From Candidatus Bathyarchaeia archaeon (GTDB lineage Archaea > Thermoproteota > Bathyarchaeia > Bathyarchaeales > Bathycorpusculaceae), in NCBI GenBank assembly GCA_038883795.1, contig JAVZLK010000027.1:1-21403 (forward strand): 21,403 nucleotides of DNA, in the 5' to 3' direction. Below the pieces are notes generated by a model. The model was not told where the DNA came from. It saw only the letters and a program-made list of their open reading frames with translations, and made no database searches. Every line of letters begins with the position of its first letter. Within the stretch, counting starts at the first letter, position 1. The translations under genes were made by a program, and so were the position numbers. Below are positions 4,785-21,403 of the stretch, in pieces.

Positions 4785-4791
4785 ATTCCAA

Positions 4792-5970: not shown

Positions 5971-5977
5971 ATTTAGT

Positions 5978-7099
5978 TTAGGCATGTATATACCTTCGGC
6001 CAGGAACGGTAAGCGAATATTTCAGTCCCTTGGATTTAGCTAACCTTTTCACGAATTCCTCATAAGTTTCAAAATCTAAACAACTATAGCTGTTTAAGGC
6101 AAATGCCGCGCACGCCAAAAATACACTCTCATATGGAATAAGGATTAGCCCTATTGATCTAAAAAAATTTAGCACACGGAAGAAAATTTTATCGAATTCT
6201 TCTTCTGATATTTCAGCCAAACCACTATTAAACGATTTTGAAAGCAAGATTGACCATTTTCTTTCTTTTTCGTCTAGCAAAAGTCTCAAATGCTTATCGT
6301 CAGAATCTAAAAATGCTACCTGCAACTTTCTTCCAATATCACTTAATGAGTAACCCGAGTCATTTTTCTTTAGTACTCCCACATCAAGTAAGAAATTTAG
6401 TCGTGGTTCTACCTGCATTTCCTTATGCAAAATTGAAGCTTGCCCATCTACGCTTTTTCTTTTAAACCTCGCGCTTTCTGCTAAATATAGGCTTTTTAGA
6501 GATGAAATGGTTTCTATTTTTGCTTTCCTCTCAAACCATTGGACAACCTTTTCGAAATACTCTCCAACTAGTTCAGATCTCGTTTTGGTTGAGTTGTCAA
6601 AACAACATAATAAAGGAACTATACCGTCAATGTCGGAATACAATAAAGAATCGCAAAAAATTAACCTTTCACCTAAAGAGAGACGTGCAATCAATCCCTT
6701 TGTTTTGAACAAGGTTTCCCGCATCTGGACATCAAGAGATATAGCCCTCCCCTCTGGTGTTGTGTATAAGGCAGATAATATTTGGCCATATGTATCCCAT
6801 GTATTAATGTCTCTTCTAATAAAGTGTAAATTTTGAGCTAATGAAACATGGTTGATCGCTATAAAATCTTCAGAAGCTGGTAAATCTTCTCTTCCTATGC
6901 CTTTCCCTGCTACTTTTTCCCCCGTTTCAGGATCGATGTTCCACTTTTCTTTGTCTCTGTAAGTCTTTACAATTGTCTTATATTTACTGACTAATTGTTG
7001 CGTATATGTAAAGGATGATGGATAGGTAAGGAAAACTATAACTTTTATAAAACCCAATCTCCGTAGATCAGAACTTAAATTTAAATTCCCTCGGATCAA
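5978..7099 (-). CDS. Hypothetical protein with probable winged-helix domains
   Basis: 373-aa ORF. Segments HVSLAQNLHFI..NTWDTYG and EPRLNFLLDVGVLKKNDSGYSLSDIG match the wHTH recognition helix + wing pattern. Confidence 0.55.
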   Translation of the reverse strand: MIRGNLNLSSDLRRLGFIKVIVFLTYPSSFTYTQQLVSKYKTIVKTYRDKEKWNIDPETGEKVAGKGIGREDLPASEDFIAINHVSLAQNLHFIRRDINTWDTYGQILSALYTTPEGRAISLDVQMRETLFKTKGLIARLSLGERLIFCDSLLYSDIDGIVPLLCCFDNSTKTRSELVGEYFEKVVQWFERKAKIETISSLKSLYLAESARFKRKSVDGQASILHKEMQVEPRLNFLLDVGVLKKNDSGYSLSDIGRKLQVAFLDSDDKHLRLLLDEKERKWSILLSKSFNSGLAEISEEEFDKIFFRVLNFFRSIGLILIPYESVFLACAAFALNSYSCLDFETYEEFVKRLAKSKGLKYSLTVPGRRYIHA

Positions 7100-7164
7100 T
7101 TTGCCACCACTATACGTTTCTTTATATTATAATTTATAAACCCTTTTAGATTAGTGAATGGAGG

Positions 7165-7704
7165 CTATTTGTCCCTTTGTGAAAGTATTTCTTCCAATCT
7201 CCTTTTCCTTAATTCGTTGAAAAACCTCCTTGCATCGCTTGGTAGCACAGTTACAACCGGTTTATCTTCTTTCCCTTTCGCCACTTTAACTTTCTCTGCG
7301 AGTTTTTTCTTTTCAGCATTAAAGCTAAAGACGAACTCTTTATTACATGAAGTTTCTTTAAGACAACCTAATCCATTTACGTTAATCTTTATAGCATGTG
7401 ACCCGCTGCCAATATCTTTTAAATTGATTGTATATTCCACTGGGAAAATAGTTTCCTTATTACTGCAGTGAACAATCGGATAAAATGACTTTTTGAGTTC
7501 CCCGTCAAAGTACATGTCAACTCTAATACGTACAAATTTTTCCCTTGAAGATGGTATCTTTATCCCAAATGTAAAAATTAAATTGTTAGCCCAAACTCTT
7601 ACCGCTGGACTAGTTATGATTAATCTTTTAACAACCATCTTTCTCACTAACTTAGAAAGGAATTTAGTTTTAAATGCTTTTACTCGCCAAAACAACATAC
7701 TCAT
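7165..7704 (-). CDS. Hypothetical protein, beta-strand rich (possibly Ig-like)
   Basis: 179-aa ORF co-directional with its neighbours; alternating hydrophobic strands (VDMYFDGEL; INLKDIGSGSHAIKINV). Start uncertain. Confidence 0.5.
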   Translation of the reverse strand: MSMLFWRVKAFKTKFLSKLVRKMVVKRLIITSPAVRVWANNLIFTFGIKIPSSREKFVRIRVDMYFDGELKKSFYPIVHCSNKETIFPVEYTINLKDIGSGSHAIKINVNGLGCLKETSCNKEFVFSFNAEKKKLAEKVKVAKGKEDKPVVTVLPSDARRFFNELRKRRLEEILSQRDK

Positions 7705-7785
7705 TATCTAAAACGAGATAAAGAAAAACTTGCAAAGAGACTACGTTGTTCTATTTGGGACGTTAAGCATTCCACATCCTCTTTT

Positions 7786-8754
7786 TTAATATTTGTTGTT
7801 TAATGGCCAGACTAGTATGTCCCATTCTTTACCAGGCGTTGTTTTTTCGCCTTTGAACATGAAATTTGTTATTTTTGGGCATACTGGTTTGAAGAAGCAG
7901 TTTGGTTGGCATTTTTTGCGTCTGCAGTTTCTGCCAGTTTTCCATATTGGTTCGTCCATTTCTAGTGGTAGTGTTTGCGTGTTTTCAGCTACCAACATCC
8001 AAGCATAATTGAATGGTTCGTTTAGTTCTGTGAAGGATCCTTCAAAATGTCCTTCTACTACCTTTACGAGTCCTAGGGCTATTCCTGCGCTGATGATATT
8101 TTTGTCTATTGGCATTGGAATCTCTGCCAGCTCATGTCTTTTGAAGTTCCACATTCCATTTCCAAGTTCGATTTCTTCACTTTCACACATGGTTCTAAAC
8201 CATAGTTTGATTACTTTATCTCCGTTTGGCAGCCCATTGTATTTTTGATCCTTAAGCCAATTTAGAAAGTCTTTGGCGCTTCGAGTCTTTGAAGAATTCA
8301 GATAGATGTCTAAAATTTTCCGAGGGTCGCCGTCGACTGTTTCCAATAAGTATCTTGCCGATTTATATACGCGAAGCGCCATTTTCTCAGGCGAGGCAGG
8401 CGCACGGTAAATGCCCCTAAAATGTTCCTTGAAAATGGAAACGATACGTTCAGGACCTTTTTTGACCAAATTTTTCGGATACAACTCCTCAAGGTGATTT
8501 TCAAAAAGCTTTCTTGAAGCAGACCATAAGTCATCAGCTATTGTCTTCAAATTGTAATCAATCAAACACGTATATGTCAGGTACAAAGCGTGTTCCAAAC
8601 TGTTCCATTCAACTCCTCTAGGAAGAATATGTTCGGGCCCACAAGCCAAACGCAGAAAATCCTTTTTATGTAAAAGGATACGCTGTGAAACCTTCTCTAT
8701 TTGCTGTAGATCAGCTTCGATGCAAAAAGAACCAATCCAGAAACGTTTAGCCAT
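7786..8754 (-). CDS. HhH-GPD superfamily DNA glycosylase-like protein with C-terminal 4-Cys (Fe-S) motif
   Basis: HhH-like GLPNGDKVIKLW, GPD-like IPMPIDKNI..LGLV, DEPIWKTG and CRRKKCQPNCFFKPVC. Starts 5 bp after the dpdA stop. Confidence 0.7.
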   Translation of the reverse strand: MAKRFWIGSFCIEADLQQIEKVSQRILLHKKDFLRLACGPEHILPRGVEWNSLEHALYLTYTCLIDYNLKTIADDLWSASRKLFENHLEELYPKNLVKKGPERIVSIFKEHFRGIYRAPASPEKMALRVYKSARYLLETVDGDPRKILDIYLNSSKTRSAKDFLNWLKDQKYNGLPNGDKVIKLWFRTMCESEEIELGNGMWNFKRHELAEIPMPIDKNIISAGIALGLVKVVEGHFEGSFTELNEPFNYAWMLVAENTQTLPLEMDEPIWKTGRNCRRKKCQPNCFFKPVCPKITNFMFKGEKTTPGKEWDILVWPLNNKY

Positions 8755-8759
8755 TCACA

Positions 8760-10481
8760 TCACGCAACAAACTCTAAAAGTGATTTTTCTGTCGGGATAG
8801 CTTGCTTGATAATGCTACATAAATCGCCATAACCTTTACTCTTAACTGTTATGAATCGTTCATCCCATAGGTTTCGAAGAGTTTCTCTGTATTTTTCTCC
8901 TGCTATAACTAGGATTGTTTCATACTTACCCAAGATGGGTTTCAATTTTTCCTCAACAATTGGGCGAATTCTTTCTATATCTTCTGAAGTCTGTAATACT
9001 TTCTCGTATCCCTCGATAATTTCATCTGGAAAAACAAGTCCGTATTTTGCAGAAATTATTACGTAGTCAAAGCCCATGCTTTCAGCATACTCCCTGACAG
9101 TTTTGAATAACCTACCTTGGTACATTTTCTTGGCAGGAACTTTTACTGAACTATTGTAGCCGAGTTTTTCTTTTGAGCATTCTGTTATGATTAGGACTTT
9201 TTCCCCCTTTTTAAGGGATGAAAGTTGAAACTCTGTATCTTTGTTGGTTTGATTGATGAAAATCTGCCATTTTTGTGGATCCTTTAGTACTTGATAGAAT
9301 ACGTAAGTGTTGTGGAAACCGCGGCGTCTGTTGCGGTTGTTTCCGCGGAATATTACTACTTCTATGCCGATTTTGCTGCATATTGGGCAACTGCATCTTT
9401 TCCAAGGTTTGTCTTCTAATGTCTTTCTGTAATATGATACTAGTTCAGTTTTTTCGCCTGCAGTTTTATAAAACTGTAAGATGGTGGATAATGCCTGATT
9501 GATTTCGGTTTCGCCTTTATCGTAGAGCCTTAGTTTATTCAAGCATTGCTGCTCTAAATTTTTCAAAAAACTTTCATTTTGTTCTGGTACTAGACTTTCT
9601 ATTACTTTCTCGCGTTTTTTACCTACAAATGGAATGCGAATGGCTGTGTAACCTTTCCCGTCAATTGATAAATAGTTGAGTTGTGATGTTGGAGCAGATA
9701 GCCATGCTTTACGAAGATATGATGCGGAATCAAAACCTACCATAATGCCTAGATCTTCTAATTCTTTAAATTTGGGGAACAGGGCGAATCTGGCTAGACC
9801 GAAAAAGTGAATGTATTCAGGGGATTTCCGATACTCTTTAATTTTCCTCTTTAACTCTTCGATTAAATTAATTATGAAGGACGTGGGTGACCGTGCCAGA
9901 CCGCCGAAACCGATGTGTGAAGCGCCTAAGTCCACATATTTCCTATAAAAGTTTAGATAATCTGAAACATTCCAGCCCTGAACAGCCATGATGAGTTGGA
10001 AGTCATTTTTATATCTTCTTTTCCACTCCTCAAATGACTTAAGAGCGTTTTCGAAGGTGATTTTCATCCTGTAGTCTTTTTGGCGTTCGTGTTTTGGAAC
10101 TACGAGGTGATCTACCGTAACGCCGTAATTAAATCCAAGTTCGTGATAATATTCCAGGGTTTCGATAGGGTCATACCGCGGACTTTCCTCGTCGACGTAT
10201 CCGAAAGCCCCGCAGTCGCCCATTATCTCAAAATTTTTGGGGAGACGTAAGACTTTATGGATGCCTTCCTGCTTGGCAAGCTGATACTTCTTTTTATCTT
10301 GCTCCAATGTTATTCTGGAAACCAAAACTCCATCTATGGGAACTTTATCCACTCCAAAAATATCCCAGATGTAGGCATCATTGTTGAAGGAGTCCAGTTT
10401 GTGCTCTGGGGAATGAGCATCGTTGATAAAGTCATAGCCTGGATCTACACGGTCATTCCATTCAGGTATGAAGTACTTCAC
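8760..10481 (-). CDS. dpdA: DNA 7-deazaguanine transglycosylase DpdA with C-terminal DUF6884/YaaA-like domain
   Basis: DpdA hallmarks: DRVDPGYDF, DGVLVSR, GDCGAFGY, TVDHL, VQGW, GGLA, HFFG, FDSASYLRKAW, YTAIRIP, PWKRCSCPIC and IFRGNNRNRRRGFHN. An extra domain of about 150 aa has IITECSKEK..AKKMYQGRLF..IISAKYGLV..IEGYEK. Confidence 0.92.
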   Translation of the reverse strand: MKYFIPEWNDRVDPGYDFINDAHSPEHKLDSFNNDAYIWDIFGVDKVPIDGVLVSRITLEQDKKKYQLAKQEGIHKVLRLPKNFEIMGDCGAFGYVDEESPRYDPIETLEYYHELGFNYGVTVDHLVVPKHERQKDYRMKITFENALKSFEEWKRRYKNDFQLIMAVQGWNVSDYLNFYRKYVDLGASHIGFGGLARSPTSFIINLIEELKRKIKEYRKSPEYIHFFGLARFALFPKFKELEDLGIMVGFDSASYLRKAWLSAPTSQLNYLSIDGKGYTAIRIPFVGKKREKVIESLVPEQNESFLKNLEQQCLNKLRLYDKGETEINQALSTILQFYKTAGEKTELVSYYRKTLEDKPWKRCSCPICSKIGIEVVIFRGNNRNRRRGFHNTYVFYQVLKDPQKWQIFINQTNKDTEFQLSSLKKGEKVLIITECSKEKLGYNSSVKVPAKKMYQGRLFKTVREYAESMGFDYVIISAKYGLVFPDEIIEGYEKVLQTSEDIERIRPIVEEKLKPILGKYETILVIAGEKYRETLRNLWDERFITVKSKGYGDLCSIIKQAIPTEKSLLEFVA

Positions 10482-10567
10482 TGGAAACCCTGTTTGCGCA
10501 AGTTTTTATTCATTAGTTAGTTATATGGAACGCACTTTTAACGTTTTGACCTGCATGGAAAAGAGGT

Positions 10568-10708
10568 TTAAGTTGTTTTTTCTTTAAAGTAATCAGAAAT
10601 AATAAATCTGATTAGTTCTTGAATCGTTCCTAGTTTCCTTTTTTGGCGTTCTTTTTCGAGGGCTGCGTACATATCGTCCGGCATTGACATAGTGAATTTT
10701 TTAGCCAT
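10568..10708 (-). CDS. Small ribbon-helix-helix (CopG-like) DNA-binding protein, 46 aa, absent from the ORF track
   Basis: Manual translation: MAKKFTMSMPDDMYAALEKERQKRKLGTIQELIRFIISDYFKEKTT-stop. RHH strand-helix-helix pattern; AGGTG Shine-Dalgarno-like sequence just upstream. Confidence 0.85.
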   Translation of the reverse strand: MAKKFTMSMPDDMYAALEKERQKRKLGTIQELIRFIISDYFKEKTT

Positions 10709-10718
10709 CTAAATACAC

Positions 10719-10778
10719 CTTTGGAATTTTATGGATGGAAAAATATTTATACATGATTACTTCTTTAGAATTCCAAAG
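10719..10778. promoter_or_regulatory. Divergent promoter region with an inverted repeat flanking a TATA-like element
   Basis: CTTTGGAATT (10719-10728) and AATTCCAAAG (10769-10778) are perfect reverse complements (12/13 when extended inward) and bracket GGAAAAATATTTATAC (BRE/TATA-like). Confidence 0.55.
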
Positions 10779-10801
10779 AGGTATAAAGAAGGAAGGATGT
10801 T

Positions 10802-11968
10802 ATGTTGGAAGAAAAATTGTTAGATTTTAAAAAAGTTTCCAAAAGCTATAAGGCATACGGCCTTAAACGAAACCCATTCCCGTACGTAGGAGTACCTGAA
10901 GACGCAGTATCGCTTTACGCTGATCGCAAAAAAGAACTGAAGATAATAGAGGAAATCATAAAATCATCGCTGCAAAATGTTTCTTGCCACGCAGCACTTA
11001 TAGGAAGCTATGGCAACGGCAAAACCCACACTTTAAAGTATCTAAAGAGACAAATAGAGAATCAGCTGGAAGATGTCGTTGTCATTTACATATCGAACCC
11101 AGGCGACCGAATACTGTCGCTTTACTCCAACTTCATGTATGAATTCGGCTTTCACCGCCTAGAGGAGTTGGTATGGAAATTTCTAGAATTTGCTACAGGC
11201 GAAAAAAGTCTAAGAAAGAAAGTTAATGAAGGGGAGGTTTTACTGCCAGAAATCCTTGAAATCGGCAAAAGAAGGCTTCTAAACGAAATAAAATATACTG
11301 ATTTTGCAATGGCTTTCCTAAAACTCACCATGGAAGAATGCAAGTTTCTCGCCTGGAAATATCTTTGCGGTGAGCCCATAATTTCAGACTACAGAAGAGA
11401 ACTCGACGTGGTGTCAGCAATAGACAATGACGAAAAAGCCTTACGAGCCTTTATGAGTCTAAAGAGCATTCTTACATTATTAGGTAACAAACTCTTATGC
11501 CTATTAATCGACGAATTTGAGGCCATTGAATATCTTCATCCAATTCTTAAACAGAAAATTCTAAACGGAATAAGACATCTAATAGACTTAAACCCGCAAG
11601 GATTCTGCCTAATTATAGGATGCGCCCCAGAAGTCTGGGTGGACGTTGTCAAGGAATACCACGCCTTCTCTGATAGAATCTTTAGACAAGTAACCTTGAA
11701 AGCCTTAAGCGAAAGGGACATGCGAGATTTTATCGCTGCCTATTTAAGGTCGTCGAGACTGGATGACGCTGATCCGCCAAGCGAAATTTTCCCATTTACT
11801 GATGATGCAATAACGGAGATTCATAAAGTTGCTGAAGGCAATATTCGACGGATGCTTATGGTGTGCAATCAAGCCATAGATGCTGGGGTAGAACATAATG
11901 CACCGGTAATTACCTCCCAAAAACTAAGGGAACTGCTTCCAGATCTATTCGAAACGGTTGAAGCATAA
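10802..11968 (+). CDS. AAA+ ATPase, BrxD/DUF2791/DpdH-like (paralog 2)
   Basis: YGLKRNPF, Walker A GSYGNGKTHTL, KYLCGE, Walker B LLIDEFE, SDRI, FPFTDDAI, GNIRR. Stop overlaps the next start (TAATG). Confidence 0.85.
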   Translation: MLEEKLLDFKKVSKSYKAYGLKRNPFPYVGVPEDAVSLYADRKKELKIIEEIIKSSLQNVSCHAALIGSYGNGKTHTLKYLKRQIENQLEDVVVIYISNPGDRILSLYSNFMYEFGFHRLEELVWKFLEFATGEKSLRKKVNEGEVLLPEILEIGKRRLLNEIKYTDFAMAFLKLTMEECKFLAWKYLCGEPIISDYRRELDVVSAIDNDEKALRAFMSLKSILTLLGNKLLCLLIDEFEAIEYLHPILKQKILNGIRHLIDLNPQGFCLIIGCAPEVWVDVVKEYHAFSDRIFRQVTLKALSERDMRDFIAAYLRSSRLDDADPPSEIFPFTDDAITEIHKVAEGNIRRMLMVCNQAIDAGVEHNAPVITSQKLRELLPDLFETVEA

Positions 11969-13038
11969 TGACGCATGCTTTTGAAGTAGAGCACGAAAAC
12001 GGACTTGCGCGAGTTGGACGGTTGAAAACAAAACATGGCATGCTATCAACACCAGTTCTTTTTCCAGTCCACAATTTAGGCGCAGAAGGCGGGTGGAACA
12101 CCCCAAGATACTGGGAAAAATTTCCCCACATCAACACAGCTATGTTCAACGCCTCACTCTTAGCCCTAAACCGGGGAGGACATTTAGGGACAATTCTACA
12201 AATAGGCGTCCACCGCTTCATAAGATTTTTTGGTGTAGCATTTGTTGACAGCGGCGGTTTCTTATACAAAAAACATAGGCTCGCATTCAAACCTGAAAAG
12301 ATCCTGGAAATCCAAGAAAAAATGGGGGCAGACATCGCCTCAACCCTTGACTATCCAATAAACTGCAAAATTTTATCCGAAAACAGCAATATTCTTCGAA
12401 CAGTTAACAACGCGAAACTAGCCTCTTCTTTGAAGAAAAACCCGGAAATGCTGCTTTTTGCAAGTATAAACGGCTATGACCCTGTTGTTGTCAGAAATAT
12501 AATAAAACATCTTAAAAAACATGGAAAATTTGATGGCTTTGCCATTGGAAGTTTGATGCCAAAATACGGCAGCTACAGTTTCCTTGTTGACACCATACTT
12601 GCTGCGAGATTAGAGGCGGGTAATACTCCAATCCACGTGTACGGGCTAGGAAGCCCGCTCATATCTCATCTTTTAATTTATCTGGGCGTGGACTCCTTTG
12701 ATTCCTCATACTTTATTGTAGCTTCAGGGAAAAGAAATTACGCCATCCCAGGTTTAGGCCGAATAGAATTCAAAGATCTATACAAATACTCCTCGTACAT
12801 AAAATGCGAGTGCCCAATATGCAAAACAATGCCCCTTTCAGAAATAAGGAGAAGTCGAAATCTTATAACATTGCATAATCTATGGGCATTGTGGAATGAA
12901 ATAGATAAAGTTAAAATCGCCATAAAGGAGAACAGAGTTGAAGAATATATCACCGAACGCCTTTCAAAGGCTAAGTGGGCGAAAGCAGCTTTTGAATACG
13001 CAAAACGCAGAGTTCGCTTCCGCTTTCCGGGTGGTTAA
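11968..13038 (+). CDS. Guanine transglycosylase (TGT family), catalytic domain only, archaeosine-TGT-like
   Basis: ARVGRLKTKHG..TPVLFPV, VDSGGF, TLDYP, FAIGSLMP, HVYGLG, GVDSFDSS and Zn site CECPIC...HNL. At 356 aa it lacks the C-terminal C2/PUA tRNA-binding domains. Confidence 0.9.
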   Translation: MTHAFEVEHENGLARVGRLKTKHGMLSTPVLFPVHNLGAEGGWNTPRYWEKFPHINTAMFNASLLALNRGGHLGTILQIGVHRFIRFFGVAFVDSGGFLYKKHRLAFKPEKILEIQEKMGADIASTLDYPINCKILSENSNILRTVNNAKLASSLKKNPEMLLFASINGYDPVVVRNIIKHLKKHGKFDGFAIGSLMPKYGSYSFLVDTILAARLEAGNTPIHVYGLGSPLISHLLIYLGVDSFDSSYFIVASGKRNYAIPGLGRIEFKDLYKYSSYIKCECPICKTMPLSEIRRSRNLITLHNLWALWNEIDKVKIAIKENRVEEYITERLSKAKWAKAAFEYAKRRVRFRFPGG

Positions 13039-13040
13039 TT

Positions 13041-13898
13041 ATGGTTGAAAGAAAAACCATGAGGCCAATAACCCTCAGGAGAGTCATTGAAATATGCAGT
13101 TTATCAACAAAGGATAAAGGGTTAACCGTGGAGACAGTGTCAAAGAGGCTAAATTCAAGCAGGTCAAGGGCTAAAGAGATGCTCCTCGAAGTTGAAAAAA
13201 TGGGCTTACTAGATCATTCCGGAAACTATTGGACAGCAAGCGAGAGAACCAGCAAATTTATAGAATATTTTGAAAAAGAGGAATGGAACAAGATTCACCA
13301 ATACTTTCTAGAAAACTACAAATTTTATAAAGAGTTCATCCAAATACTGCAAGGCCACATTAACGACCCGCAAGGTCTAAGCTTAGACGATATTGTTAAA
13401 GAATCCGTAGACCGTGGGTTACATTTAAACAAGACAGCGGTTGAAGTTTTAGTAGATTGGTGTGAACGACTAGGAGTAATTCAAAGGAATCTTTACACAG
13501 CCAAGGCTTACTTATTAAGAGATAAAATTGAAAACTTTGAATGTTTTCTCAAAATTTTGGTAAAAGTTTACCGCAAACTCGCATTTCCACTTTGGCGCAA
13601 AGAAGTTTATGTCGAAATACCACTAATTAGGGAAAACGTATGTGAAGAACTTAAAATCTCTCGAAAAACCTTTGATGATTTGCTAAAGGAGGCCTATTTA
13701 AAGAATGTTGGAAAAATCGAATTTAGCGGTGCACCTATAACTACTTTTGCCAAAAAAAGCCCGCTTAGCGAGAAAAAAATAACCCCTGTTGGGAAAGAGG
13801 CAATAATGTCGGCAAGATCCACATTAAAAAGGGAAAGAGAAGGCTTAACAATTAATAAAAAATCTTACTACTATCTTGCTATCCATGAAGCAGTCTAA
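13041..13898 (+). CDS. Tandem winged-helix DNA-binding protein
   Basis: Three wHTH-like units: LTVETVSKRLNSSRSRAKEMLLEVEKMGLL; LSLDDIV..LNKTAVEVLVDWCERLGVI; VEIPLIRENVCEELKISRKTFDDLL. Starts 2 bp after the TGT stop. Confidence 0.7.
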   Translation: MVERKTMRPITLRRVIEICSLSTKDKGLTVETVSKRLNSSRSRAKEMLLEVEKMGLLDHSGNYWTASERTSKFIEYFEKEEWNKIHQYFLENYKFYKEFIQILQGHINDPQGLSLDDIVKESVDRGLHLNKTAVEVLVDWCERLGVIQRNLYTAKAYLLRDKIENFECFLKILVKVYRKLAFPLWRKEVYVEIPLIRENVCEELKISRKTFDDLLKEAYLKNVGKIEFSGAPITTFAKKSPLSEKKITPVGKEAIMSARSTLKREREGLTINKKSYYYLAIHEAV

Positions 13899-13925: not shown

Positions 13926-14597
13926 TCATTCTGTGAAATACTTTGGAAGCACTTTTAGTAAAGAAATGGTCATTGCCGCAGCTCCGACTGTTCCGACAAG
14001 CCTTTCATAAATCATTAGTGGGAGCACTCCGACAAAAACTTGCCATGGAAGGCCGAGTAGATGCACTGCGAATATCATCATCATCCCCTGCTCAGTCATT
14101 GTCGAGATATAAGTGTACAATGGTATCTTTAGATGTGGCGGCGTCATTCTCTTTAATGCGCTTACCACGGCAAAAGCTATAGCTACTGAGTGGGGTACGA
14201 TAAAGTAGGGGAATGGGTAATTTTTGATTAAATAGGATGTGATGGCCCCCACCAGAAAAATTGAAGTCGCCAATGCACCCGGCCTTGCCTTATGATATGT
14301 AAGGCTTCCAAGGGTTGCCCCCACAACTGGCAGCAAAATTGTGTAAGGGCCGAACATCGCCTGAGAGGGTGATACGTAGAGGGCTATGACTCCTCCAAAA
14401 AGTGAAGCGAAAAAGGCTTCTAATGGAGGCAGTAGAACTGCTATAACTGGAGTTATTATGAGGTTTAAAGCGAGAAAACTTGGTGCTCCTATGAACATGC
14501 TTATGGGAACGAGACTTGTAATCACATAGAGCGCAGCAAAAACTCCAATCCGCGATGCTTTAAGAGCATTATCAGATGACGATGTCCCTTGCTTCAT
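13926..14597 (-). CDS. ECF transporter S-component-like membrane protein (substrate unknown)
   Basis: 223 aa with about 6-7 hydrophobic segments. N-terminal IGVFAALYVI and PVIAVLLPPLEAFFASLFGG match the S-component helix-1 and xxLxGPxxG-type patterns. Confidence 0.7.
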   Translation of the reverse strand: MKQGTSSSDNALKASRIGVFAALYVITSLVPISMFIGAPSFLALNLIITPVIAVLLPPLEAFFASLFGGVIALYVSPSQAMFGPYTILLPVVGATLGSLTYHKARPGALATSIFLVGAITSYLIKNYPFPYFIVPHSVAIAFAVVSALKRMTPPHLKIPLYTYISTMTEQGMMMIFAVHLLGLPWQVFVGVLPLMIYERLVGTVGAAAMTISLLKVLPKYFTE

Positions 14598-14917
14598 TTT
14601 TTCACCTTTCCTGCCAGCAAGTCCTCATAAACACGTCTCATATGAAAAACAGCTGTAACAGTCTCTTCAGGCAATCCACAGCCACAAGCACCACACTTGG
14701 GGCATATCATCCAGCTGCATTTAACACAAATCTTAGCTTCAGACGAGTCAAAACGCTCTCCACACTTGAAGCAATAAACATGTGGGTTAACCACAAACTG
14801 CAAAAAGTTTTCAATGAGTCTTGAAAGAGGAATATGCTTTTGGTCTGCGACAATTTTAGCTTTACTTAACACTGTTCCATCCAAAGTTATTGTGAGCTTC
14901 ACTCTAGACGTATTCAT
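14594..14917 (-). CDS. RHH (DUF6364-like) regulator with Cys-rich Zn-binding C-terminus
   Basis: VKLTITLDGTVLSKAKIVADQKHIPLSRLIENFL followed by CFKC, CVKC and CPKCGACGC. 4-bp ATGA overlap with the S-component gene. Confidence 0.75.
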   Translation of the reverse strand: MNTSRVKLTITLDGTVLSKAKIVADQKHIPLSRLIENFLQFVVNPHVYCFKCGERFDSSEAKICVKCSWMICPKCGACGCGLPEETVTAVFHMRRVYEDLLAGKVKK

Positions 14918-14974
14918 ACGTATTCACACTTATTAGCACGACTTAATATGTATATAAAACTTTTTAACACGAAT
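14909..14974 (-). promoter_or_regulatory. Promoter/operator of the RHH-ZnF + S-component operon
   Basis: Minus-strand AAAAAGTTTTATATA (BRE/TATA) is flanked by related boxes TTAGCACGACTT and TTAACACGAATT; a tandem CGTATTCA repeat overlaps the start codon. Confidence 0.5.
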
Positions 14975-15007
14975 TGTTAAAAGTCAAATATTTAGCTAAT
15001 CTAAAAT

Positions 15008-15058
15008 CTAACTGTGGACTTTTTCTGTTATTAGGCTTATGCTTTTTGCGTATTCCAT
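15008..15058 (-). repeat. Copy 1 of the RHH-gene 3' end (17 codons)
   Basis: Minus strand reads MEYAKSISLITEKVHS-TAG, the same peptide as the end of 18549..18713. Confidence 0.9.
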
Positions 15059-15245
15059 TTCTTTCTTGTTATTAAATATGGAGAGGCTTAAGTTGATGAA
15101 GAGGTTATATAGCGAATTTGCCTTAAAAATGTAAATTTTGTCTTTTTTGTGTTTTTCGTGCTGTTACGTTGAAAAATGTGATAGAGGCGAATAAAATCGA
15201 ATAGGGTAACGCTTTTTAGTTCTTGATCATTTATAATTTTAGGCT

Positions 15246-15653
15246 ATGAATGACCAGGAGTGGCATTTTCACAAGGCAAAACAACTCTTGTTTTATTTTG
15301 GGATTTTCATAGATTTCATTTGGGCCTCAGTTTTGGTAATGGTGTTTGCTTTGCATTTCTTAGGCTATAATGTGCCGGAAACGCTAACATCGCTGGATTT
15401 TATGAATTCGGCTGTTGGATACTCTTTTTTAATTCTCTCCATAGCTTATCCAGTTAGGAGAGGCGCAAAGCTTTGGAAGCTAAGTTTAGCCATTAACCTA
15501 ACAATTGGACTTCTTGTGCTCATAGGGGGCGTATACAGCGTCATTTTAATGGAGGCAAACATTTTTACATATCTATGCCTTATCATAGGAGCGTTTACCA
15601 TCATGTTTAATATGAAAAATGCGTCGCATTCAAATGAAAAGTTAACTGTGTAG
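15246..15653 (+). CDS. Small integral membrane protein (about 4 TM)
   Basis: 135 aa with four hydrophobic stretches; TTTATA box shortly upstream (leaderless-type). Confidence 0.7.
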   Translation: MNDQEWHFHKAKQLLFYFGIFIDFIWASVLVMVFALHFLGYNVPETLTSLDFMNSAVGYSFLILSIAYPVRRGAKLWKLSLAINLTIGLLVLIGGVYSVILMEANIFTYLCLIIGAFTIMFNMKNASHSNEKLTV

Positions 15654-15708
15654 ACGTTGACTATAGTTTAGGGCTTACAGTCAATTACGAATCAACTCAA
15701 AACCGTCT

Positions 15709-15780
15709 TCAACTATGGACTTTTTCCGTTATTAGTGATATACTTTTTGTGTATTCCGTTAAGGCTTGGCGTAGAACCTC
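15709..15780 (-). repeat. Copy 2 of the RHH-gene 3' end (24 codons)
   Basis: Minus strand reads EVLRQALTEYTKSISLITEKVHS-TGA. Similarity ends abruptly at 15780 and an in-frame stop lies upstream. Confidence 0.9.
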
Positions 15781-15913
15781 CCTTCCAACATTGTTTCTGT
15801 TTATCGTTTGTAGAATAAGCTGCGATTAGATGCTTGCAAAATTGGATTAGGCTGGCGAAGGTAGATTGCGGCTTTGGTGCGTTAATCTTAAATTTGTTAC
15901 GCCTTAAACTTTA

Positions 15914-16150
15914 ATGTGGGCTTTGTTGACCGAAAAGCATGAAGAGGAAAGGCTTCCAGTTTCTGAGAAAGTGAAAGTTTTGCGTTTCCAAACACTTTTT
16001 AAGGGTGGGCGTTGGTGGGCTGCCGCAGGCCTATTCGAGGCTTTTGGAAGTGGAGACTCATGGAAAAGACGGCAAAAGTTTGTTTTCAGGTCGAAGGACG
16101 AATGGGAGAAGGCCAAAAAAGCCATAGAAAGCCTAGCGGCGGAGCTTTAA
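15914..16150 (+). CDS. Small Trp-rich hypothetical protein (possible PC4-like ssDNA-binding fold)
   Basis: 78 aa ending 4 bp before the helicase start. Aromatic beta-strands then a C-terminal helix (KFVFRSKDEWEKAKKAIE). The fold is a guess. Confidence 0.55.
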   Translation: MWALLTEKHEEERLPVSEKVKVLRFQTLFKGGRWWAAAGLFEAFGSGDSWKRRQKFVFRSKDEWEKAKKAIESLAAEL

Positions 16151-16154
16151 GGGC

Positions 16155-18026
16155 ATGCTGGCCGAGAAACGCTATGTTTGGCACCCGCTGTTAAAGGAGA
16201 AAGCCGTAGAGGATAGGCTTTACCAGAACAGGATTCTGGAAAGAGCCCGCAAATGCAACACTCTTGTTGTCTTGCCGACAGCCCTCGGAAAAACAGTCAT
16301 AGCACTGCTATTAGCGATAGAAAAGGCCGAGGAGGGCAAAATATTCTTTTTAGCGCCCACAAGGCCCCTAGTCCAGCAGCACCACCAAACCTTCCTAGAC
16401 AAAACATGGTTCGACGAAGCCGAACTAGCCCTTGTTACCGGGCGTTATCCGCCAAACCATAGAGCCGCCCTATACAACAGGGCGAAGGTTGTTTTCGCCA
16501 CTCCACAATGCGTTTGGAACGACTTGAAAAGCGGGCTTTTAAGGCTTGATAATGTCGCGCTCATAATTTTTGATGAGGCCCACAGGGCTAGGGGAAACTA
16601 CGCCTACGTTGGCATAGCCACCTACTATTTTAGGCAATGCCGCAAACCCCTAGTTTTGGGTTTAACGGCTTCTCCGGGAGGAAGCGAAGAGAAAATAGCT
16701 GAAGTTTGCAGGAATTTGGGCATAAAAGCCATAGAACACCGAACAGACGAGGACAAGGACGTTAAGCCCTACATCCAACCCATAGAGGTTGAATGGCGCC
16801 GTGTAAAGCCTCCAGAACAGTATTTAGCCGTTAGAGACAAGCTTAGGCAGATGCTGGTTGAGCGTGTCAAGGGCTTGCAGGCTCTCGGCGTTTTAACGGA
16901 CAAGCAGCCAGCCTTCATAACAAGGCGCGATCTAGTAGAGCTTAACGAGGAATTGCAGCGTAGGCTTGGAGGAGGAGAAGGCGGATACCTATACCAGCTT
17001 AAAGTTGAAGCAACAGCAGCCCTAAGCATAGCCCACATGATAGAACTAATAGAGTCGCAGGGGCCAGAAACCCTAGAAGCCTTCATAGAGAAAAGCCTGA
17101 AACGCATGGCCATGGAGGGAAGCAAGGGCCACAAATCAATCCTAAACGATCCACTCTTCATAGAAGCTAGAAAAAACCTTAGAAGCTGCACGGCAACACA
17201 AAACCCGAAAGTAACAGAGCTTGTCAAAGTTTTGGAGGCCCAGCTCCAAGCCAAACCAGACTCGAGGCTTATAATTTTTACGCAGTACCGCGACACAGTA
17301 AACGCCCTAACCAAAGCCCTAAACAACAATTCAAGGCTTAGGGTTGAACGCTTCGTGGGCCAAGGCGAACGTGAAGGCGACCCTGGAATGAGCCAAGAAC
17401 AGCAACGTGAAGTCCTTGAAAAGCTTAGAAATGGCGAAACAAACGTTTTGGTGGCAACAAGCATAGCTGAGGAAGGCTTAGACATTCCAGAAGTGGACCA
17501 CGTAATATTTTATGAGCCTGTTCCAAGCGAGATACGCTACATACAGCGAAGGGGCAGAACAGGAAGACGCGTAGCAGGAAAAGTAACCATCCTAATAGCC
17601 GAAGACACCGTTGACGAAGCCTTCTACTGGTCAAGCATCTCAAGAGCAAGAAAAATGAAGCGCATAATAAGCCAACTAAACAGGAAACTGTCAGAACTGC
17701 TAAAGGAGAAGGCCAAGCCAACCATAACCCTAATGGACTACCAGCCACAAACGACACAAGCCACAACAACAAGCGCCCAAACACAAGCCGCTCCACCTAA
17801 AAAGGAGCTCTGGAAACCACAAACAATACAGACGAAAGGCCTAAGCCAAGCCATAAAGTGGCTGATGGAAAACCTCCCAAACCAAACAATAACAATAGAA
17901 GAAGTCGTCCAACGGGCCTATGAAGATGAAGGCCTAGAAAAGGCAGCCGTTGAAACAGCCATATGGCGCCTAACACAACAAGGCCAAATATACCAGCCAG
18001 AACCGGGAAAAATAAGAAAACTATGA
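16155..18026 (+). CDS. Hef/FANCM(Mph1)-like SF2 DEAH helicase lacking the ERCC4 nuclease, with C-terminal winged helix
   Basis: RLYQ, LPTALGKT, APTRPLVQQH, DEAHRARGNYAY, LTASPG, IIFTQYRDT, FVGQ, ATSIAEEGLDIP, YEPVPSEIRYIQRRGRTGR. Confidence 0.9.
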   Translation: MLAEKRYVWHPLLKEKAVEDRLYQNRILERARKCNTLVVLPTALGKTVIALLLAIEKAEEGKIFFLAPTRPLVQQHHQTFLDKTWFDEAELALVTGRYPPNHRAALYNRAKVVFATPQCVWNDLKSGLLRLDNVALIIFDEAHRARGNYAYVGIATYYFRQCRKPLVLGLTASPGGSEEKIAEVCRNLGIKAIEHRTDEDKDVKPYIQPIEVEWRRVKPPEQYLAVRDKLRQMLVERVKGLQALGVLTDKQPAFITRRDLVELNEELQRRLGGGEGGYLYQLKVEATAALSIAHMIELIESQGPETLEAFIEKSLKRMAMEGSKGHKSILNDPLFIEARKNLRSCTATQNPKVTELVKVLEAQLQAKPDSRLIIFTQYRDTVNALTKALNNNSRLRVERFVGQGEREGDPGMSQEQQREVLEKLRNGETNVLVATSIAEEGLDIPEVDHVIFYEPVPSEIRYIQRRGRTGRRVAGKVTILIAEDTVDEAFYWSSISRARKMKRIISQLNRKLSELLKEKAKPTITLMDYQPQTTQATTTSAQTQAAPPKKELWKPQTIQTKGLSQAIKWLMENLPNQTITIEEVVQRAYEDEGLEKAAVETAIWRLTQQGQIYQPEPGKIRKL

Positions 18027-18148
18027 AAAGGTCCACCAAATCCGCATATCATTAACAAGTAATAAGCTATGAAAAAGATTAAGGCTAAATTTTAACAGCA
18101 TCTGATAAAGGCAGAAAGGGAGGAGACCGTCAGCATAAACCCTTTATA

Positions 18149-18505
18149 TTAGGTTTCTGATGCATCCTCCCTTTTCATTTTCAATGCCAACCTAACCAGT
18201 AGGATAGCTGCCAACGAGAATAGGAGCGAGGCTAAAGCTATCATCATGCCTACCACAATGTTTCTATACGGCGGCGCTGCAGCAAAGCCCACTATGAACC
18301 CGCCTAGAGTCGAACATAGAATTATTAAGAACTCTAAGGTAGCCCTGTATTTCCAAGCGAGTATCCCAGCAATAATTAGGGCTATTACAACAAAAATCGC
18401 AGGCGACACCACAACGCTTGGGGTCTCTTCCGGAGTTGGAGGCGGCGGCTGCTGCATCAACAGCTTGACAAGGCACGTTAACATTGTTCCCACTTTTAAC
18501 CACAC
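18149..18505 (-). CDS. Small membrane protein (Pro-rich stretch + about 3 TM)
   Basis: QQPPPPTPEETPS followed by three hydrophobic segments. Start uncertain. Confidence 0.55.
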   Translation of the reverse strand: MWLKVGTMLTCLVKLLMQQPPPPTPEETPSVVVSPAIFVVIALIIAGILAWKYRATLEFLIILCSTLGGFIVGFAAAPPYRNIVVGMMIALASLLFSLAAILLVRLALKMKREDASET

Positions 18506-18548
18506 TCACGAAAGTAATCAACCAATGCGATAATAAATTTCAAATTTT

Positions 18549-18713
18549 TTAACTGTGAACCTTTTCTGTTATTAGTGATATGCTTTTTGCGTATTCCATG
18601 AAGGCTTGGCGTAAGACTTCGCTTTCTCCTATGCCGAGGCTTTTTGCTATGCGCTCCAACAAATGTTTTTGTTCTTTGCTTAGGTAGACTTTAACCCAGC
18701 TTTTCCTCCGCAT
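18549..18713 (-). CDS. Ribbon-helix-helix transcription regulator, 54 aa, absent from the ORF track
   Basis: Manual translation: MRRKSWVKVYLSKEQKHLLERIAKSLGIGESEVLRQAFMEYAKSISLITEKVHS-stop. Classic CopG/RHH pattern; divergent from the head genes. Confidence 0.9.
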   Translation of the reverse strand: MRRKSWVKVYLSKEQKHLLERIAKSLGIGESEVLRQAFMEYAKSISLITEKVHS

Positions 18714-18724
18714 AACTCTTTAAA

Positions 18725-18780
18725 CCTACATAAGTTCCTACATAGTTACCGTTCAACATTTGAATTTTAAAACTTTTCTT
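18725..18780 (-). promoter_or_regulatory. Promoter and candidate operator of the RHH gene
   Basis: Minus-strand GAAAAAGTTTTAAA (BRE/TATA) at about 18778-18765. Direct repeat CCTACATAAGTT/CCTACATAGTT at 18725-18747 covers the expected transcription start. Confidence 0.55.
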
Positions 18781-18802
18781 CCACCCAAAAGCTTCAAGGT
18801 CT

Positions 18803-20617
18803 GTGGTTGAAATCCCCTGGACAGAAACCGACCAGTATATTCGCAGCGGACACCGCAATCCGGAGGATTTTCAGCTAGACAGTTTCCGCACTATAACACT
18901 CAGCGAGGATGAGGGCATTAAGGCTGTTGTCGGCAAGCCTAAAGGCTCCGACAGGATGGAGGTTCAAAGCTACCTTTTCGACAAGAGTAAGGGTTGGACT
19001 TTAGATAAGGCGAAGGCTTGGTTTGAAGGGCACCGTGAAACACTGGTTAGGGAGCATTTCACGGCCGTTCTCCCCTTCCAGGTTTTGGAGAAAGTTGTTG
19101 ACAAGCCCTTGCGTATCCGCGGCATAGCCATGAAGGTTGGCATGAGCCGAAACCGCAACATTTACACGCCTGAAGAGCTTCACGCCTTCGCTTCTAAACT
19201 GGTTGGGGTTCCTCTTTACATTGAGCATGTGGCTGTCCCAAACGCTATTGGGCGAGTAACAAACGCCTACTTTGACGGCGAAAACCTCTGGTATGAAGCT
19301 GAAATCTATGATGATGAATACGCTGAGAAAATCCGGAAGGGCTTAATCCAGCATGTAAGCGTAGGAGCAGACTATGAAACCATAGACATCCTAGACGGAA
19401 AAGTGCCCCACGGACTGCACAACGCCGAGCTAAGCCTTGTAGCCGTGCCGGGCATACCTGAAACCAACATCCAAATACTCGAGAAGCTCAACCAAGCCAA
19501 CGCCCCGCCCATAGCGGAGCAAAGCGACGTTTTACCCCTACAAGCAGGCGAATACTATTTGGCATATTATCGGGACCCCAACGCCTTCCTACCCCAACAC
19601 TTCACAGCCACGTGGCTAGACAGAGAAAACGGCGTTTTAGCCGTCAAAGGCCGACTGAAGGATAAGCCTGAAGAAACCCGGATTCAAGCCATCCTTTTCG
19701 CCAGGGAAAAATGGGATGAAGCCAAAATCCAGGACTGGCTAAGGCTTCACCCTCAATACATTGTTGAAAAGGCGGAATTCTCAGTCCCGAAAGCATCTGA
19801 GGCGGATACTTCGAAAGGGCTGAAAGAGGTGGTTGAAACGTCTGAAAACAAGCCTAAAACCCTTTCAACCCAGCTTTGGGAAAGGGTTTGGAGCACCCGC
19901 TACAAAAACGAATTGCCAGACGACGCCTTCGCCTTAATACTGCCAGGCGGCGAAAAAGACGAGACGGGCAGAACCAAGCCTAGAAGCCTAAGGCTTTTCC
20001 CATACAAAAACGCTCAGGGCAAGGTGGACCTCCCCCACTTGAGAAACGCCAACGCCAGAGTCAGCCAAATGATCGACGGCAAGATACCGCGTGGACAAGC
20101 CACCGTCGACCAGCTTAAACAAGCCCAAAGAAAACTTGTAGCCGTCAAAAAGAAGCTTGGCATAGGCGCGGCAGCCGAAGAAATGAAACTTTACGAGGAA
20201 ATAAACGCTGAAGAGGAAGTTCCCGAAAAGATTGAGCCCTTGCCTGAGCCAACAAGTGACGAGTTTCTGCAAAGCCTCGAAGACGCGTTAGACGAAATAT
20301 GGAACGCCATAGAAGACCTACAAGGCAGAATCCAAAAACTTGAGCAGACCAAGCCTCAAGTCAAGGGTCAAGACGAAACAGGGAAAGACACAATAACTGA
20401 ACAGCTAACCGTGAAACAGCAGGCAAAGGACCCCAACCTAATAGACAAGAGGAAAATTTTGGAGCTTATACCGCCCGAAAGGGTTGTCCGCTCATGGAGT
20501 TACGGCCCAAGACAGCTTGTTTACAAGATCCGCTACCTGCTTTCACAGTCCTCAAACGGACAGGGAGTAAGCCAGGACGAACTGGCTGAAACCCAAAAAC
20601 AAAGTAGGAGTGACTAA
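18803..20617 (+). CDS. Viral prohead maturation protease/scaffold multidomain protein
   Basis: HK97-type protease core IRGIA..SRNRNIY..PLYIEH..IGRV..HVSVG..ELSLVAVPG, an internal repeated domain, an LPDDAFA..FPY..DLPHLRNA domain and an acidic coiled-coil tail. Lies upstream of cement and capsid genes. Confidence 0.85.
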   Translation: MVEIPWTETDQYIRSGHRNPEDFQLDSFRTITLSEDEGIKAVVGKPKGSDRMEVQSYLFDKSKGWTLDKAKAWFEGHRETLVREHFTAVLPFQVLEKVVDKPLRIRGIAMKVGMSRNRNIYTPEELHAFASKLVGVPLYIEHVAVPNAIGRVTNAYFDGENLWYEAEIYDDEYAEKIRKGLIQHVSVGADYETIDILDGKVPHGLHNAELSLVAVPGIPETNIQILEKLNQANAPPIAEQSDVLPLQAGEYYLAYYRDPNAFLPQHFTATWLDRENGVLAVKGRLKDKPEETRIQAILFAREKWDEAKIQDWLRLHPQYIVEKAEFSVPKASEADTSKGLKEVVETSENKPKTLSTQLWERVWSTRYKNELPDDAFALILPGGEKDETGRTKPRSLRLFPYKNAQGKVDLPHLRNANARVSQMIDGKIPRGQATVDQLKQAQRKLVAVKKKLGIGAAAEEMKLYEEINAEEEVPEKIEPLPEPTSDEFLQSLEDALDEIWNAIEDLQGRIQKLEQTKPQVKGQDETGKDTITEQLTVKQQAKDPNLIDKRKILELIPPERVVRSWSYGPRQLVYKIRYLLSQSSNGQGVSQDELAETQKQSRSD

Positions 20618-20619
20618 GC

Positions 20620-21039
20620 ATGGCAGACCTGTATCCAGACGTAGATGTAGGCGACGCCGTAACAAGCATGGCTGAAACAGAAATACTAAGCTTCACAGCC
20701 GCAGCCGACATAACCAAAGGAGACCCCGTCTACCTCACAGCCGACCTAACCGTAAGCCCGGCAACATCAGCCCAAGACTGCATAGGAATAGCCCTAAAAT
20801 CAACAAAGGCAGGCGAACAGGTTCCAGTCTGCGTTAAAGGCGTCGTCAAAGTCGTCGCCGGCGGAGCCATAACCAGGGGAAAAGCCGTCTACGGCGCAGA
20901 CTCTTCAAAGCGAGTTTTAGCCTTAGCCGACATAAACGAGGGTGGAACAGCAACCCACAGCTGGACACGAAAGCTTGGATTAGCCCTACAAAGCTTCTCA
21001 GCGGCAGGCGACACAGGCCTAATCTACGTGTGCAAGTAG
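20620..21039 (+). CDS. Capsid cement/decoration protein (DUF2190-like)
   Basis: FTAAADITKGDPVYL..IGIAL..AGEQVPVCVKGVVKVVAGGAITRG; positioned between the protease and capsid genes. Confidence 0.8.
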   Translation: MADLYPDVDVGDAVTSMAETEILSFTAAADITKGDPVYLTADLTVSPATSAQDCIGIALKSTKAGEQVPVCVKGVVKVVAGGAITRGKAVYGADSSKRVLALADINEGGTATHSWTRKLGLALQSFSAAGDTGLIYVCK

Positions 21040-21053
21040 AGGAGGGACGGCGT

Positions 21054-21403
21054 ATGCCAAAACTTTTTGAACAGTTGATGAAGGACCCAGCCTTCAACGC
21101 CGAAGTTAAAGAAATGCTAGTGCGGATAAGCCAAAACCCCTTCTACCAACGCTACATCAAAAAGGGCGTTGAAGAAGGATTGTTCAGCGACGCAGCACAG
21201 GCTTTGGGACGCATGCACGACACCGTTGTTGAAGCCGCAAAGCCAAACCTGATAGGCAGAGAAATCATATGGGTCCGACCCACAAAAGAACCTCTTGAAC
21301 GTTTTCCAAAAGCCAAGAAGGGCAAAGCCTACGTCATGGCTGAAGGTGCAGGGGATTCTTCACAAATTGTTAAAGAAATAAAGGAGCGAACAAGATATGA
21401 TGT
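21054..21403 (+). CDS. Major capsid protein (HK97-type), 5' partial
   Basis: Open frame to the window end after a GGAGG SD: MPKLFEQLMKDP...DTVVEAAKPNLIGREIIWVRPTKEPLERFPKAKKGKAYVMAEGA. The E-loop-like region ending in AEG and the gene order support the call. Confidence 0.75.
   Translation, partial: MPKLFEQLMKDPAFNAEVKEMLVRISQNPFYQRYIKKGVEEGLFSDAAQALGRMHDTVVEAAKPNLIGREIIWVRPTKEPLERFPKAKKGKAYVMAEGAGDSSQIVKEIKERTRYD

Follow-up and report, generated by a model that had tools for sequence, protein, structure and literature searches.

Introduction

Integration of mobile elements into the 3'-distal part of protein-coding genes has been described for other archaea, with a small transcription regulator as one of the targets, and that work also reports target reading frames rebuilt by element-borne sequence with another stop codon, crenarchaeal attachment (att) sites of 29–69 bp, arrays that arose as one site was used repeatedly, and elements nested within others (PMC6563490). 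Here, we analyze a 21,403-nt contig of a Candidatus Bathyarchaeia archaeon (JAVZLK010000027.1, hereafter the window), which is the whole of contig C27 in an 81-contig, 2.18-Mb metagenome-assembled genome (MAG; GCA_038883795.1, or G000), and in which the 3' end of a ribbon-helix-helix (RHH) gene occurs three times around small blocks of cargo. On balance, we lean towards the reading that this RHH 3' end is an attachment-type recombination core used by mobile DNA in this Bathyarchaeia clade.

The window resembles the archaeal integrative elements of PMC6563490 in its direct repeats of tens of base pairs, its apparently rebuilt frame, its re-use of a site, and its element-in-element arrangement. 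An RHH 3' end as an attachment site in Bathyarchaeia viruses is not described in the portions of the literature that our search covered, including parts of PMC11705971, PMC10848311, and PMC6563490, which leaves its absence from print unproven. The window differs from the described elements in that its 54-aa RHH target gene is virus-borne, beside a head module, and also chromosomal; in that the core is found on at least three backbones (the window-type head module, the portal_3/Linocin-like backbone of locus L170, and the TerL-portal backbone of genome G265); and in that the window's units measure 0.65 and 2.8 kb and carry no integrase, with no cognate recombinase found near the cores. As judged from sequence comparison, the anatomy appears to fit a known kind of archaeal integration, and what is new would be the virus-borne target, the core common to backbones and chromosomes, and the tiny integrase-less units.

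Temperate phages and satellites of the P2/P4 type carry hotspots in which defence genes or other cargo lie between conserved core genes. The loci studied here likewise have common flanking genes (a winged helix-turn-helix, or wHTH, gene and RHH) and varied defence cargo (Dnd-like, prokaryotic Argonaute, restriction-modification, and Dpd-like). However, the boundary here consists of repeated, bounded copies of one gene's 3' end, which are also found at provirus-host junctions, and to our knowledge, a boundary of this kind is no part of the hotspot concept. Integron cassette arrays, built from attI, attC, and the integrase IntI, share with our locus units of one to three genes, each with its own copy of the site, behind a fixed anchor. 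Unlike in integrons, the cassette genes here lie in both orientations, the site is a coding 3' end, and we found neither an attC-type hairpin nor an IntI-type integrase with attI beside the array. In Xer-dependent modules and arrays of integrative mobile elements exploiting Xer (CTX/TLC at dif, pdif modules), integrase-less elements stack at a short site with the recombinase supplied in trans. Integrase-less tandem stacking at one short site is what we propose here as well, but the core is not dif-like, as it has no inverted-repeat arms and is present in 3 of 401 genomes rather than once per chromosome.

The 3' end of an RHH gene is present three times in the window

The intact RHH gene (18549–18713, minus strand) encodes a 54-aa CopG-type protein that scores 28.4 bits against Pfam RHH_1 (PF01402; cut-off 20.5) over residues 7–42, which places it in the CopG family. 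The gene is divergent from the head gene of the adjoining viral module, and its allele is of the kind that we call Type I. Its last ~16–19 codons and stop (18549–18606, minus strand) form the first copy of the candidate att core. The second copy (15709–15784, minus strand) is a decayed RHH pseudogene fragment that covers residues ~27/32–54 and ends in TGA; the stretch from 15709 to 15780 encodes EVLRQALTEYTKSISLITEKVHS*, with three residue changes relative to the intact protein and 60 of 72 bases matching. The third copy, or fragment 3 (15008–15058, minus strand), ends in TAG and encodes MEYAKSISLITEKVHS*, which equals residues 39–54 of the intact protein. Here, 45 of 51 bases match, and the differences (TCA/AGC, AAG/AAA, GTT/GTC, and the stop) are all synonymous. 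Thus three stop codons, TAA, TGA, and TAG, close the three minus-strand copies, and similarity among them ends at the stop codon or a few bases from it, with different DNA beyond each. When we searched the whole 2.18-Mb genome, the two partial copies scored E = 1.2e-16 and 7.2e-13, and no further partial copies were found.

These comparisons bear out the first-pass annotation, which had reported three copies in the same orientation that end at the stop and are followed by different DNA, with an identical peptide and synonymous differences only at 15008–15058. Its proposal that the fragments come from independently selected alleles, rather than from decay after a local duplication, agrees with the finding that fragment 3 is the majority allele at most metagenome sites and that its junction is also present in locus L112. 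On the other hand, its description of both partial copies as 5'-truncated holds for 15008–15058, but the copy at 15709 is longer and more decayed and is not simply cut at residue 31/32. Weaker homology in that copy extends to ~15815 (about residues 13–20) beyond an internal gap or deletion of ~33 nt, with a score that 10 of 300 shuffles also reach. One contig of run X1 joins 18656 to 15796, and the likeliest source of this joint is a form of copy 2 that lacks the ~33-nt deletion. A fragment resembling copy 2, with ~19 nt of its downstream flank, is also present in metagenome locus L165.

The core is A-rich in the RHH sense, and its complement contains TTTTT twice. We found no inverted repeat in it, and both strands fold no better than shuffled sequences, with minimum free energies of −0.7 to −3 kcal/mol and z-scores of +0.3 to +1.3. 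A search of 14500–19000 against Rfam gave no match at E up to 1, and ARAGORN detected no tRNA in the window. With all three analyses empty, a tRNA-like, RNA-gene, or hairpin site was rejected.

The core is sharply bounded and joins unrelated flanks

From the three window copies, we derived a 35-nt search pattern, which corresponds to 18562–18596 in the first copy, where identity with the other sites runs from 0–12 nt before the motif GAATAC to the stop. The pattern retrieved 40 metagenome loci and 0 matches in IMG/VR. By hidden Markov model coordinates, 12 of these loci hold a full gene, 4 an incomplete gene (one of them cut by the contig end), and 24 a fragment alone, with the lone fragments starting at profile positions 30–40. 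Some loci represent the same place in different samples (L161/L193/L195, L171/L192, L180/L184, and L191/L197 among others). Across the set, the core is ~44–54 nt long and sharply bounded: identity sets in 0–12 nt (sometimes 28–30 nt) upstream of GAATAC and is lost at the stop codon or just ahead of it, while both flanks are unrelated between loci. By our count there are 20 fragment junction families, and with 117 nt available, their 5' limits fall 0–3 nt before GAATAC in four families, 9–12 nt in nine, and 28–30 nt in four. Since any boundary upstream of the pattern would be equally detectable, this clustering is not an artefact of the search.

As expected of att sites, an intact gene (a partial one in L167) and a fragment bracket inserted DNA in the window, L099, L112, L165, L167, and L180/L184. 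The fragment lies 500–650 bp downstream of a full gene in L165, L180, and L184, and in L167, a Type I fragment lies ~300 bp downstream of a partial Type II gene. When the 5' and 3' flanks were clustered separately, we found that the full-gene 5' class combines with 11 different 3' clusters and one virus-end 5' cluster with 6, while several 3' clusters combine with two or three 5' clusters.

A set of four related configurations illustrates this assortment. L191/L197 has a solitary fragment between host genes, with an ECF-S component and a 111-aa open reading frame (ORF) in the 5' flank and SBP_bac_11 and ABC-2 permeases in the 3' flank. From 3 nt past the pattern, the 3' flank of L170 is this same host flank (92.0% identical over 1,498 nt), whereas the 5' flanks of the two are unrelated, that of L170 being the portal-proximal end of a head-tail provirus (portal_3, DUF2213, a cement protein, and a Linocin-like capsid protein). 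The L170-type virus end is also found in L174, L175, and L202 (75–82% identical over 1.1–1.5 kb), whose 3' flanks show no match to each other or to that of L170. In L163, the L170-type virus end (83.2% over 315 nt, abutting the core) is joined to the 3' end of a convergent Flg_new_2/Ig/PKD fibre-like gene, and in L176, an L191-type host 5' flank (84.1% over 157 nt) is joined to a convergent CARDB fibre-like gene. On this comparative evidence, L191/L197, L170, L163, and L176 would be the configurations expected of attB, attR, attP, and attL, respectively. Sites that appear empty, occupied, virus-only, and of the opposite junction argue that the core behaves as an attachment site.

The core lies at the edge of the structural or packaging module, beside the head gene, the portal gene, or TerL, and in many loci, large convergent beta-helix/PKD/CARDB genes, which appear to be the last (fibre-like) genes of the late operon, end a few to tens of nucleotides from it. 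Solitary fragments are found amid housekeeping or host genes in L178, G008:C6, and L191/L197. Full genes can be chimeric, with a Type II or other N-terminus and a Type I 3' end (L171/L192, L180/L184, L164, and L186), and chimeric full genes lie beside a YjeF-type gene in L169 and L180/L184 and after rpoB-rpoA-L30e-nusA in L171/L192.

Several further features of these loci stand beside the core. At 5246–6051 of L171/L192, the full RHH gene directly follows the rpoB-rpoA-L30e-nusA genes, and at 5949–8743 of L175, a fragment and a truncated portal gene lie immediately before rps12-rps7; insertions may recur at the nusA/rps12 junction of this conserved operon. A segment of ~130–190 nt located ~40–223 nt upstream of the core is conserved (75–88%) in L161, L163, L170, L174, L175, L196, L198, and L202, even where the loci have nothing further upstream in common, and could hold the promoter of the late operon or belong to a longer attachment site. 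In L196 (6058–6661), an insert of ~650 nt that encodes two small ORFs (of 131 and 79 aa) separates the core from the end of the fibre-like gene, unlike in L161, L168, L195, and L198, where that end abuts the core; no second core was noticed there. The ~450-bp interval between RHH and the fragment in L184/L180 holds a 103-aa ORF whose similarity to PyrI, the aspartate carbamoyltransferase regulatory chain, is confined to the allosteric domain; this is odd cargo for so small a block.

A cargo block and its fragment recur in a different virus

Independently of the core, we assembled 137 loci anchored on the head gene (57 from IMG/VR and 80 genome contigs); the named relatives of this gene are nearly all Bathyarchaeia MAGs. 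In 58 of the 137, the head gene has a full-length RHH homologue immediately upstream, and from the translations of these homologues we recognized three allelic types, namely Type I, that of the window (2 loci), Type II (6 loci), and Type III (50 loci). In 2 of the 58 loci, an intact Type II gene is followed by a truncated Type I fragment, 125 bp downstream in L099 and ~2 kb downstream in L112, and L150 has a weak, decayed Type II-like piece. Clear fragments are of Type I only, though 50 of the 58 RHH genes in this set are Type III.

Positions 2723–3366 of L112 are 95.8% identical to 15015–15656 of the window, which comprise fragment 3 and the 135-aa membrane protein gene of the adjoining block B. 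This similarity is limited by the fragment's stop codon at one side and ends just past the membrane gene at the other, while the head genes of the two loci are 78% and 66% identical and the RHH allele before block B differs. That the block with fragment 3 is far more alike than the head genes argues that block B, together with its fragment, has moved between different viruses. In G265, the RHH protein is identical to that of the window (DNA 91.8% identical over 233 nt). Its backbone differs (aspartyl protease, TerL, and portal), and its RHH gene is followed by a GIY-YIG nuclease and restriction-modification genes.

Cargo behind the RHH gene varies in the window and in related proviruses

In the window, the intact gene and the second copy enclose block A (15785–18548, ~2.77 kb, GC ~50%), which has three ORFs on both strands: a 118-aa membrane protein (18149–18505, minus strand), a superfamily 2 (SF2) helicase (16155–18026, plus strand), and a 78-aa ORF (15914–16150, plus strand). 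Block B (15059–15708, 650 bp), between the second and third copies, has the multi-pass 135-aa membrane protein (15246–15653, plus strand) as its sole gene. Neither the RHH protein nor the 118-aa, 135-aa, or 78-aa protein has a match in PHROGs. The helicase is present in 3 of 25 relatives, in 0 of 4 genomes of the same genus, and as one copy in its own genome. Given this sporadic presence in relatives (3 of 25), the helicase and the 78-aa ORF together resemble a two-gene unit, mobile or viral, that is widespread. With the same counts in relatives and same-genus genomes, the possibility that the helicase is a host core gene, and block A chromosome, was rejected.

The MAG contains seven further full-length RHH paralogues and, beside the window, at least five related head-tail viruses or proviruses, on contigs C31 (L016), C38 (L020), C26 (L019), C11 (L017), and C77 (L018). 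RHH is the divergent neighbour of the head gene in C31, C11, and C26 as well, and the C31 head module is 87.7% identical to that of the window at the nucleotide level. Behind the RHH stop, we found a radical-SAM gene and a Dnd-like cluster (PAPS reductase and SMC-like ATPase) in C31, a dCTP deaminase and a Piwi protein (prokaryotic Argonaute) with partners in C26, ParB and radical-SAM genes in C38, and two small ORFs in C11 and C77. A comparison that the first-pass annotation had suggested, of what follows the RHH stop in relatives, thus showed that the gene content differs among C31, C26, C38, C11, C77, L110, L112, and G265. Conserved flanking genes with different cargo, as in a virus-borne defence or cargo hotspot, are found in C31, C38, C26, and G265, with DpdA as the counterpart in the window. 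The RHH gene of C26 has an in-frame TAA.

Another element of the MAG (C59, or L021, 742–7416) is small and carries two tandem RHH genes, one of Type II and the next Type I-like, with a C-terminus that diverges inside the core; downstream of the pair come genes for a primase-polymerase and a Cdc6-like ATPase, and then one for a tyrosine integrase, which adjoins tRNA-Ser.

A proposed route of insertion at the RHH 3' end

If the RHH 3' end is an attachment-type site, the core would comprise the last ~44–54 nt of the gene, from GAATAC at codon 40 (often with 9–12 nt more upstream) to the stop codon. An incoming element would bring its own truncated RHH 3' end, and recombination within the core, either in an RHH gene or in a solitary fragment, would put the element directly behind the intact gene. 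The reading frame would be rebuilt, possibly with a different stop, and the element's own fragment would come to lie at the far end, such that repeated use of the site would stack elements. In the RHH sense, the window would then read as head module, intact RHH gene, block A, fragment 2, block B, fragment 3, and older downstream DNA, with the Dpd-like defence island and an Arc-like gene representing what lay behind RHH before blocks B and A arrived. Most likely, the 3' end of this RHH gene, which viruses and chromosomes alike carry, is an att-like site behind which small cargo units lacking an integrase have accumulated in tandem. We infer that a site-specific recombinase acting in trans drives the insertion and that this core was also the entry point of blocks A and B.

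A more far-reaching form of this idea seems doubtful to us. In it, the RHH 3' end would be a landing pad for cassette capture that is integron-like but distinct: a co-resident virus or the host would supply, in trans, the recombinase that inserts and stacks integrase-less units, each with a truncated RHH 3' end, and exchanges them among unrelated backbones and chromosomes, and the cargo would consist of membrane proteins, the helicase operon, and perhaps defence genes. The first-pass annotation had likewise supposed that cargo is exchanged at the RHH 3' end as at an att site or cassette-array anchor. The att-like part of that claim finds support in the bounded core, the combinatorial flanks, and the empty and occupied sites, but the likeness to integrons does not extend to a hairpin or an adjacent integrase. 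It had also suggested that the defence island became linked to the head module in this way. Since the island lies beyond the last fragment, where it would be original DNA and not an inserted cassette, its linkage to the head module is unsupported by the array itself. A link through this site is plausible nonetheless, and defence cargo behind RHH is common in relatives.

Alternative explanations for the repeated 3' ends

Several results weigh against an attachment site. No integrase or recombinase was found among 202 ORFs of at least 70 aa within 6 kb of cores (124 + 78; 41 of the 119 ORFs in the second listing were left out, being short ORFs or nine L192 ORFs that duplicate L171), none in blocks A and B, and by Pfam, no integrase anywhere in the 21.4-kb window; the sole nearby hint is a 155-aa integrase-like piece, below cut-offs, 4.4 kb from the core in G008:C73. 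In contigs of public runs, we found no clean excision, empty, or circular form of the window's blocks, nor did these contigs show the excision products or circles joining two copies that the first-pass annotation had proposed to look for, the joint from 18656 to 15796 being better read as an undeleted copy 2. The intervals between intact gene and fragment are all small (0.1–2.8 kb), where whole integrated elements would predict otherwise. In four runs, the summed contig depth of the 78-aa and helicase operon (~15877–18027) is 20–30 times that of its flanks; these depths, being sums over all contigs of all organisms, do not serve as copy numbers. The operon is a unit in its own right that is not bounded by cores, with loose contig ends at ~15877 and 18019–18027. 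Part of the near-invariance within the 35 nt stems from the search pattern itself, and the four loci that resemble attB, attR, attP, and attL come from different samples and not from one strain, with no single event reconstructed. The core is also rare, being present in 3 of the 401 Bathyarchaeia species genomes searched (G000 included), all of one family; genomes reached via L112, L099, L124, G008, and G265 added scattered single cores only, and no second core lies on the same contig in the extended contigs G008:C73 and G265:C18. Lastly, C31 and C38 have a PF16795 integrase beside tRNA-Glu, 12–13 kb from RHH, and C59 has a PF00589 integrase beside tRNA-Ser. Related proviruses therefore most likely integrate at tRNA genes, which makes the RHH cargo region internal to them.

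These points favor, in part, a possible though rather unlikely alternative, in which the fragments are left over from general or illegitimate recombination in a cargo hotspot between the RHH 3' end and the next conserved viral gene. Co-infecting viruses would swap cargo by homologous recombination, with RHH and the head module as one arm, and imprecise joins would leave pieces of the RHH 3' end, without a dedicated site or enzyme. The cargo of C31, C38, and C26, bounded by the conserved wHTH gene and RHH with no RHH fragments, is what such exchange would produce, and the missing recombinase, the variable fragment lengths, the chimeric full genes of L171/L192, L180/L184, L164, and L186, and the helicase operon without cores at its ends all suit it. 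Random joins, however, do not predict 5' limits clustered within a few nucleotides across ~20 junction families, solitary cores amid host genes (L178, L191/L197, and G008:C6), or a provirus-host boundary inside the core at a site that is empty elsewhere, nor do they predict clear fragments of Type I only where 50 of 58 genes are Type III. Quite improbably, in our view, the fragments could instead have been kept or spread for another role, either as a T5-tract terminator for convergent genes or as a signal for binding or packaging where the late operon begins. Oligo-T terminates archaeal transcription, and the two TTTTT tracts on the complement of the core, the convergent beta-helix/PKD/CARDB genes that end near it in many loci, and its constant position at the boundary of the structural or packaging module would be in keeping with such a role. 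That would leave unexplained why the DNA differs on both sides of the core and why a host site is found both empty and occupied, and neither the folding z-scores nor Rfam points to a predicted structure.

The arrangement could also be an assembly chimera in which strain variants with RHH and different downstream blocks were concatenated, and we consider this very improbable. The MAG has 81 contigs, 3.4% contamination, and several related proviruses, GC rises from ~37% to ~50% near 15850 (genome mean 40.6%), and none of 18 public runs contains more than 43% of the sampled words of 14700–18900, which means that the whole array is not independently reproduced. However, the longest exact words common to the copies are only 14, 21, and 11 nt at 83–90% identity, which makes a repeat-induced misjoin unlikely. 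The junction of fragment 3 with block B is present in the independent MAG contig L112, contigs of run X8 bridge both this junction and that between the RHH stop and the 118-aa gene, and the arrangement of gene plus fragment recurs in L099, L112, L165, L167, and L180/L184.

If the RHH 3' end is a true recombination site, it would provide a defined, searchable att sequence for uncultured Bathyarchaeia and their viruses, usable for mapping provirus borders, linking viruses to hosts, and seeking the acting recombinase. It would explain the accessory and defence genes beside the structural module of these viruses, and a single attachment sequence common to several virus backbones and chromosomes would permit one virus to insert into another. 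Should it prove to be no more than a recombination scar, the locus reflects ordinary mosaic cargo exchange.

The defence island and head module of the window

The first genes downstream of the last fragment (13926–14917, minus strand) encode a 107-aa DUF6364/Arc-like RHH protein (PF19891, 1.9e-9; phrog_3180, Arc-like repressor) and a 223-aa ORF. Beyond them lies the Dpd-like defence island (861–13898, ~13 kb, GC ~37%), which contains DpdA fused to DUF6884 (8760–10481, minus strand; PADLOC DpdA E = 8.1e-90) and, by Pfam, a TGT-family protein (11968–13038), two BrxD-like ATPases (4792–5970 and 10802–11968), a HerA-like ATPase (2816–4312), and a PLD nuclease (4281–4784). At the other end of the window, the start of the head module (18803–21401, plus strand) comprises a 604-aa protein that weakly matches a head-maturation protease, then a cement protein and the N-terminal portion of the major capsid protein, the last assigned through its C31 counterpart, which matches Phage_capsid.

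At the left end of the defence island, 612–855 (plus strand) is a remnant of a 141–176-aa gene kept in the related proviruses C31, C38, and C77. It is 80% identical to C38 5732–5501 at the nucleotide level and has matches in 12 related loci. The gene adjoins RHH in C77, and the orientation of the window's piece, opposite to that in C31 and C38, points to either a rearrangement or the leftover of a second element.

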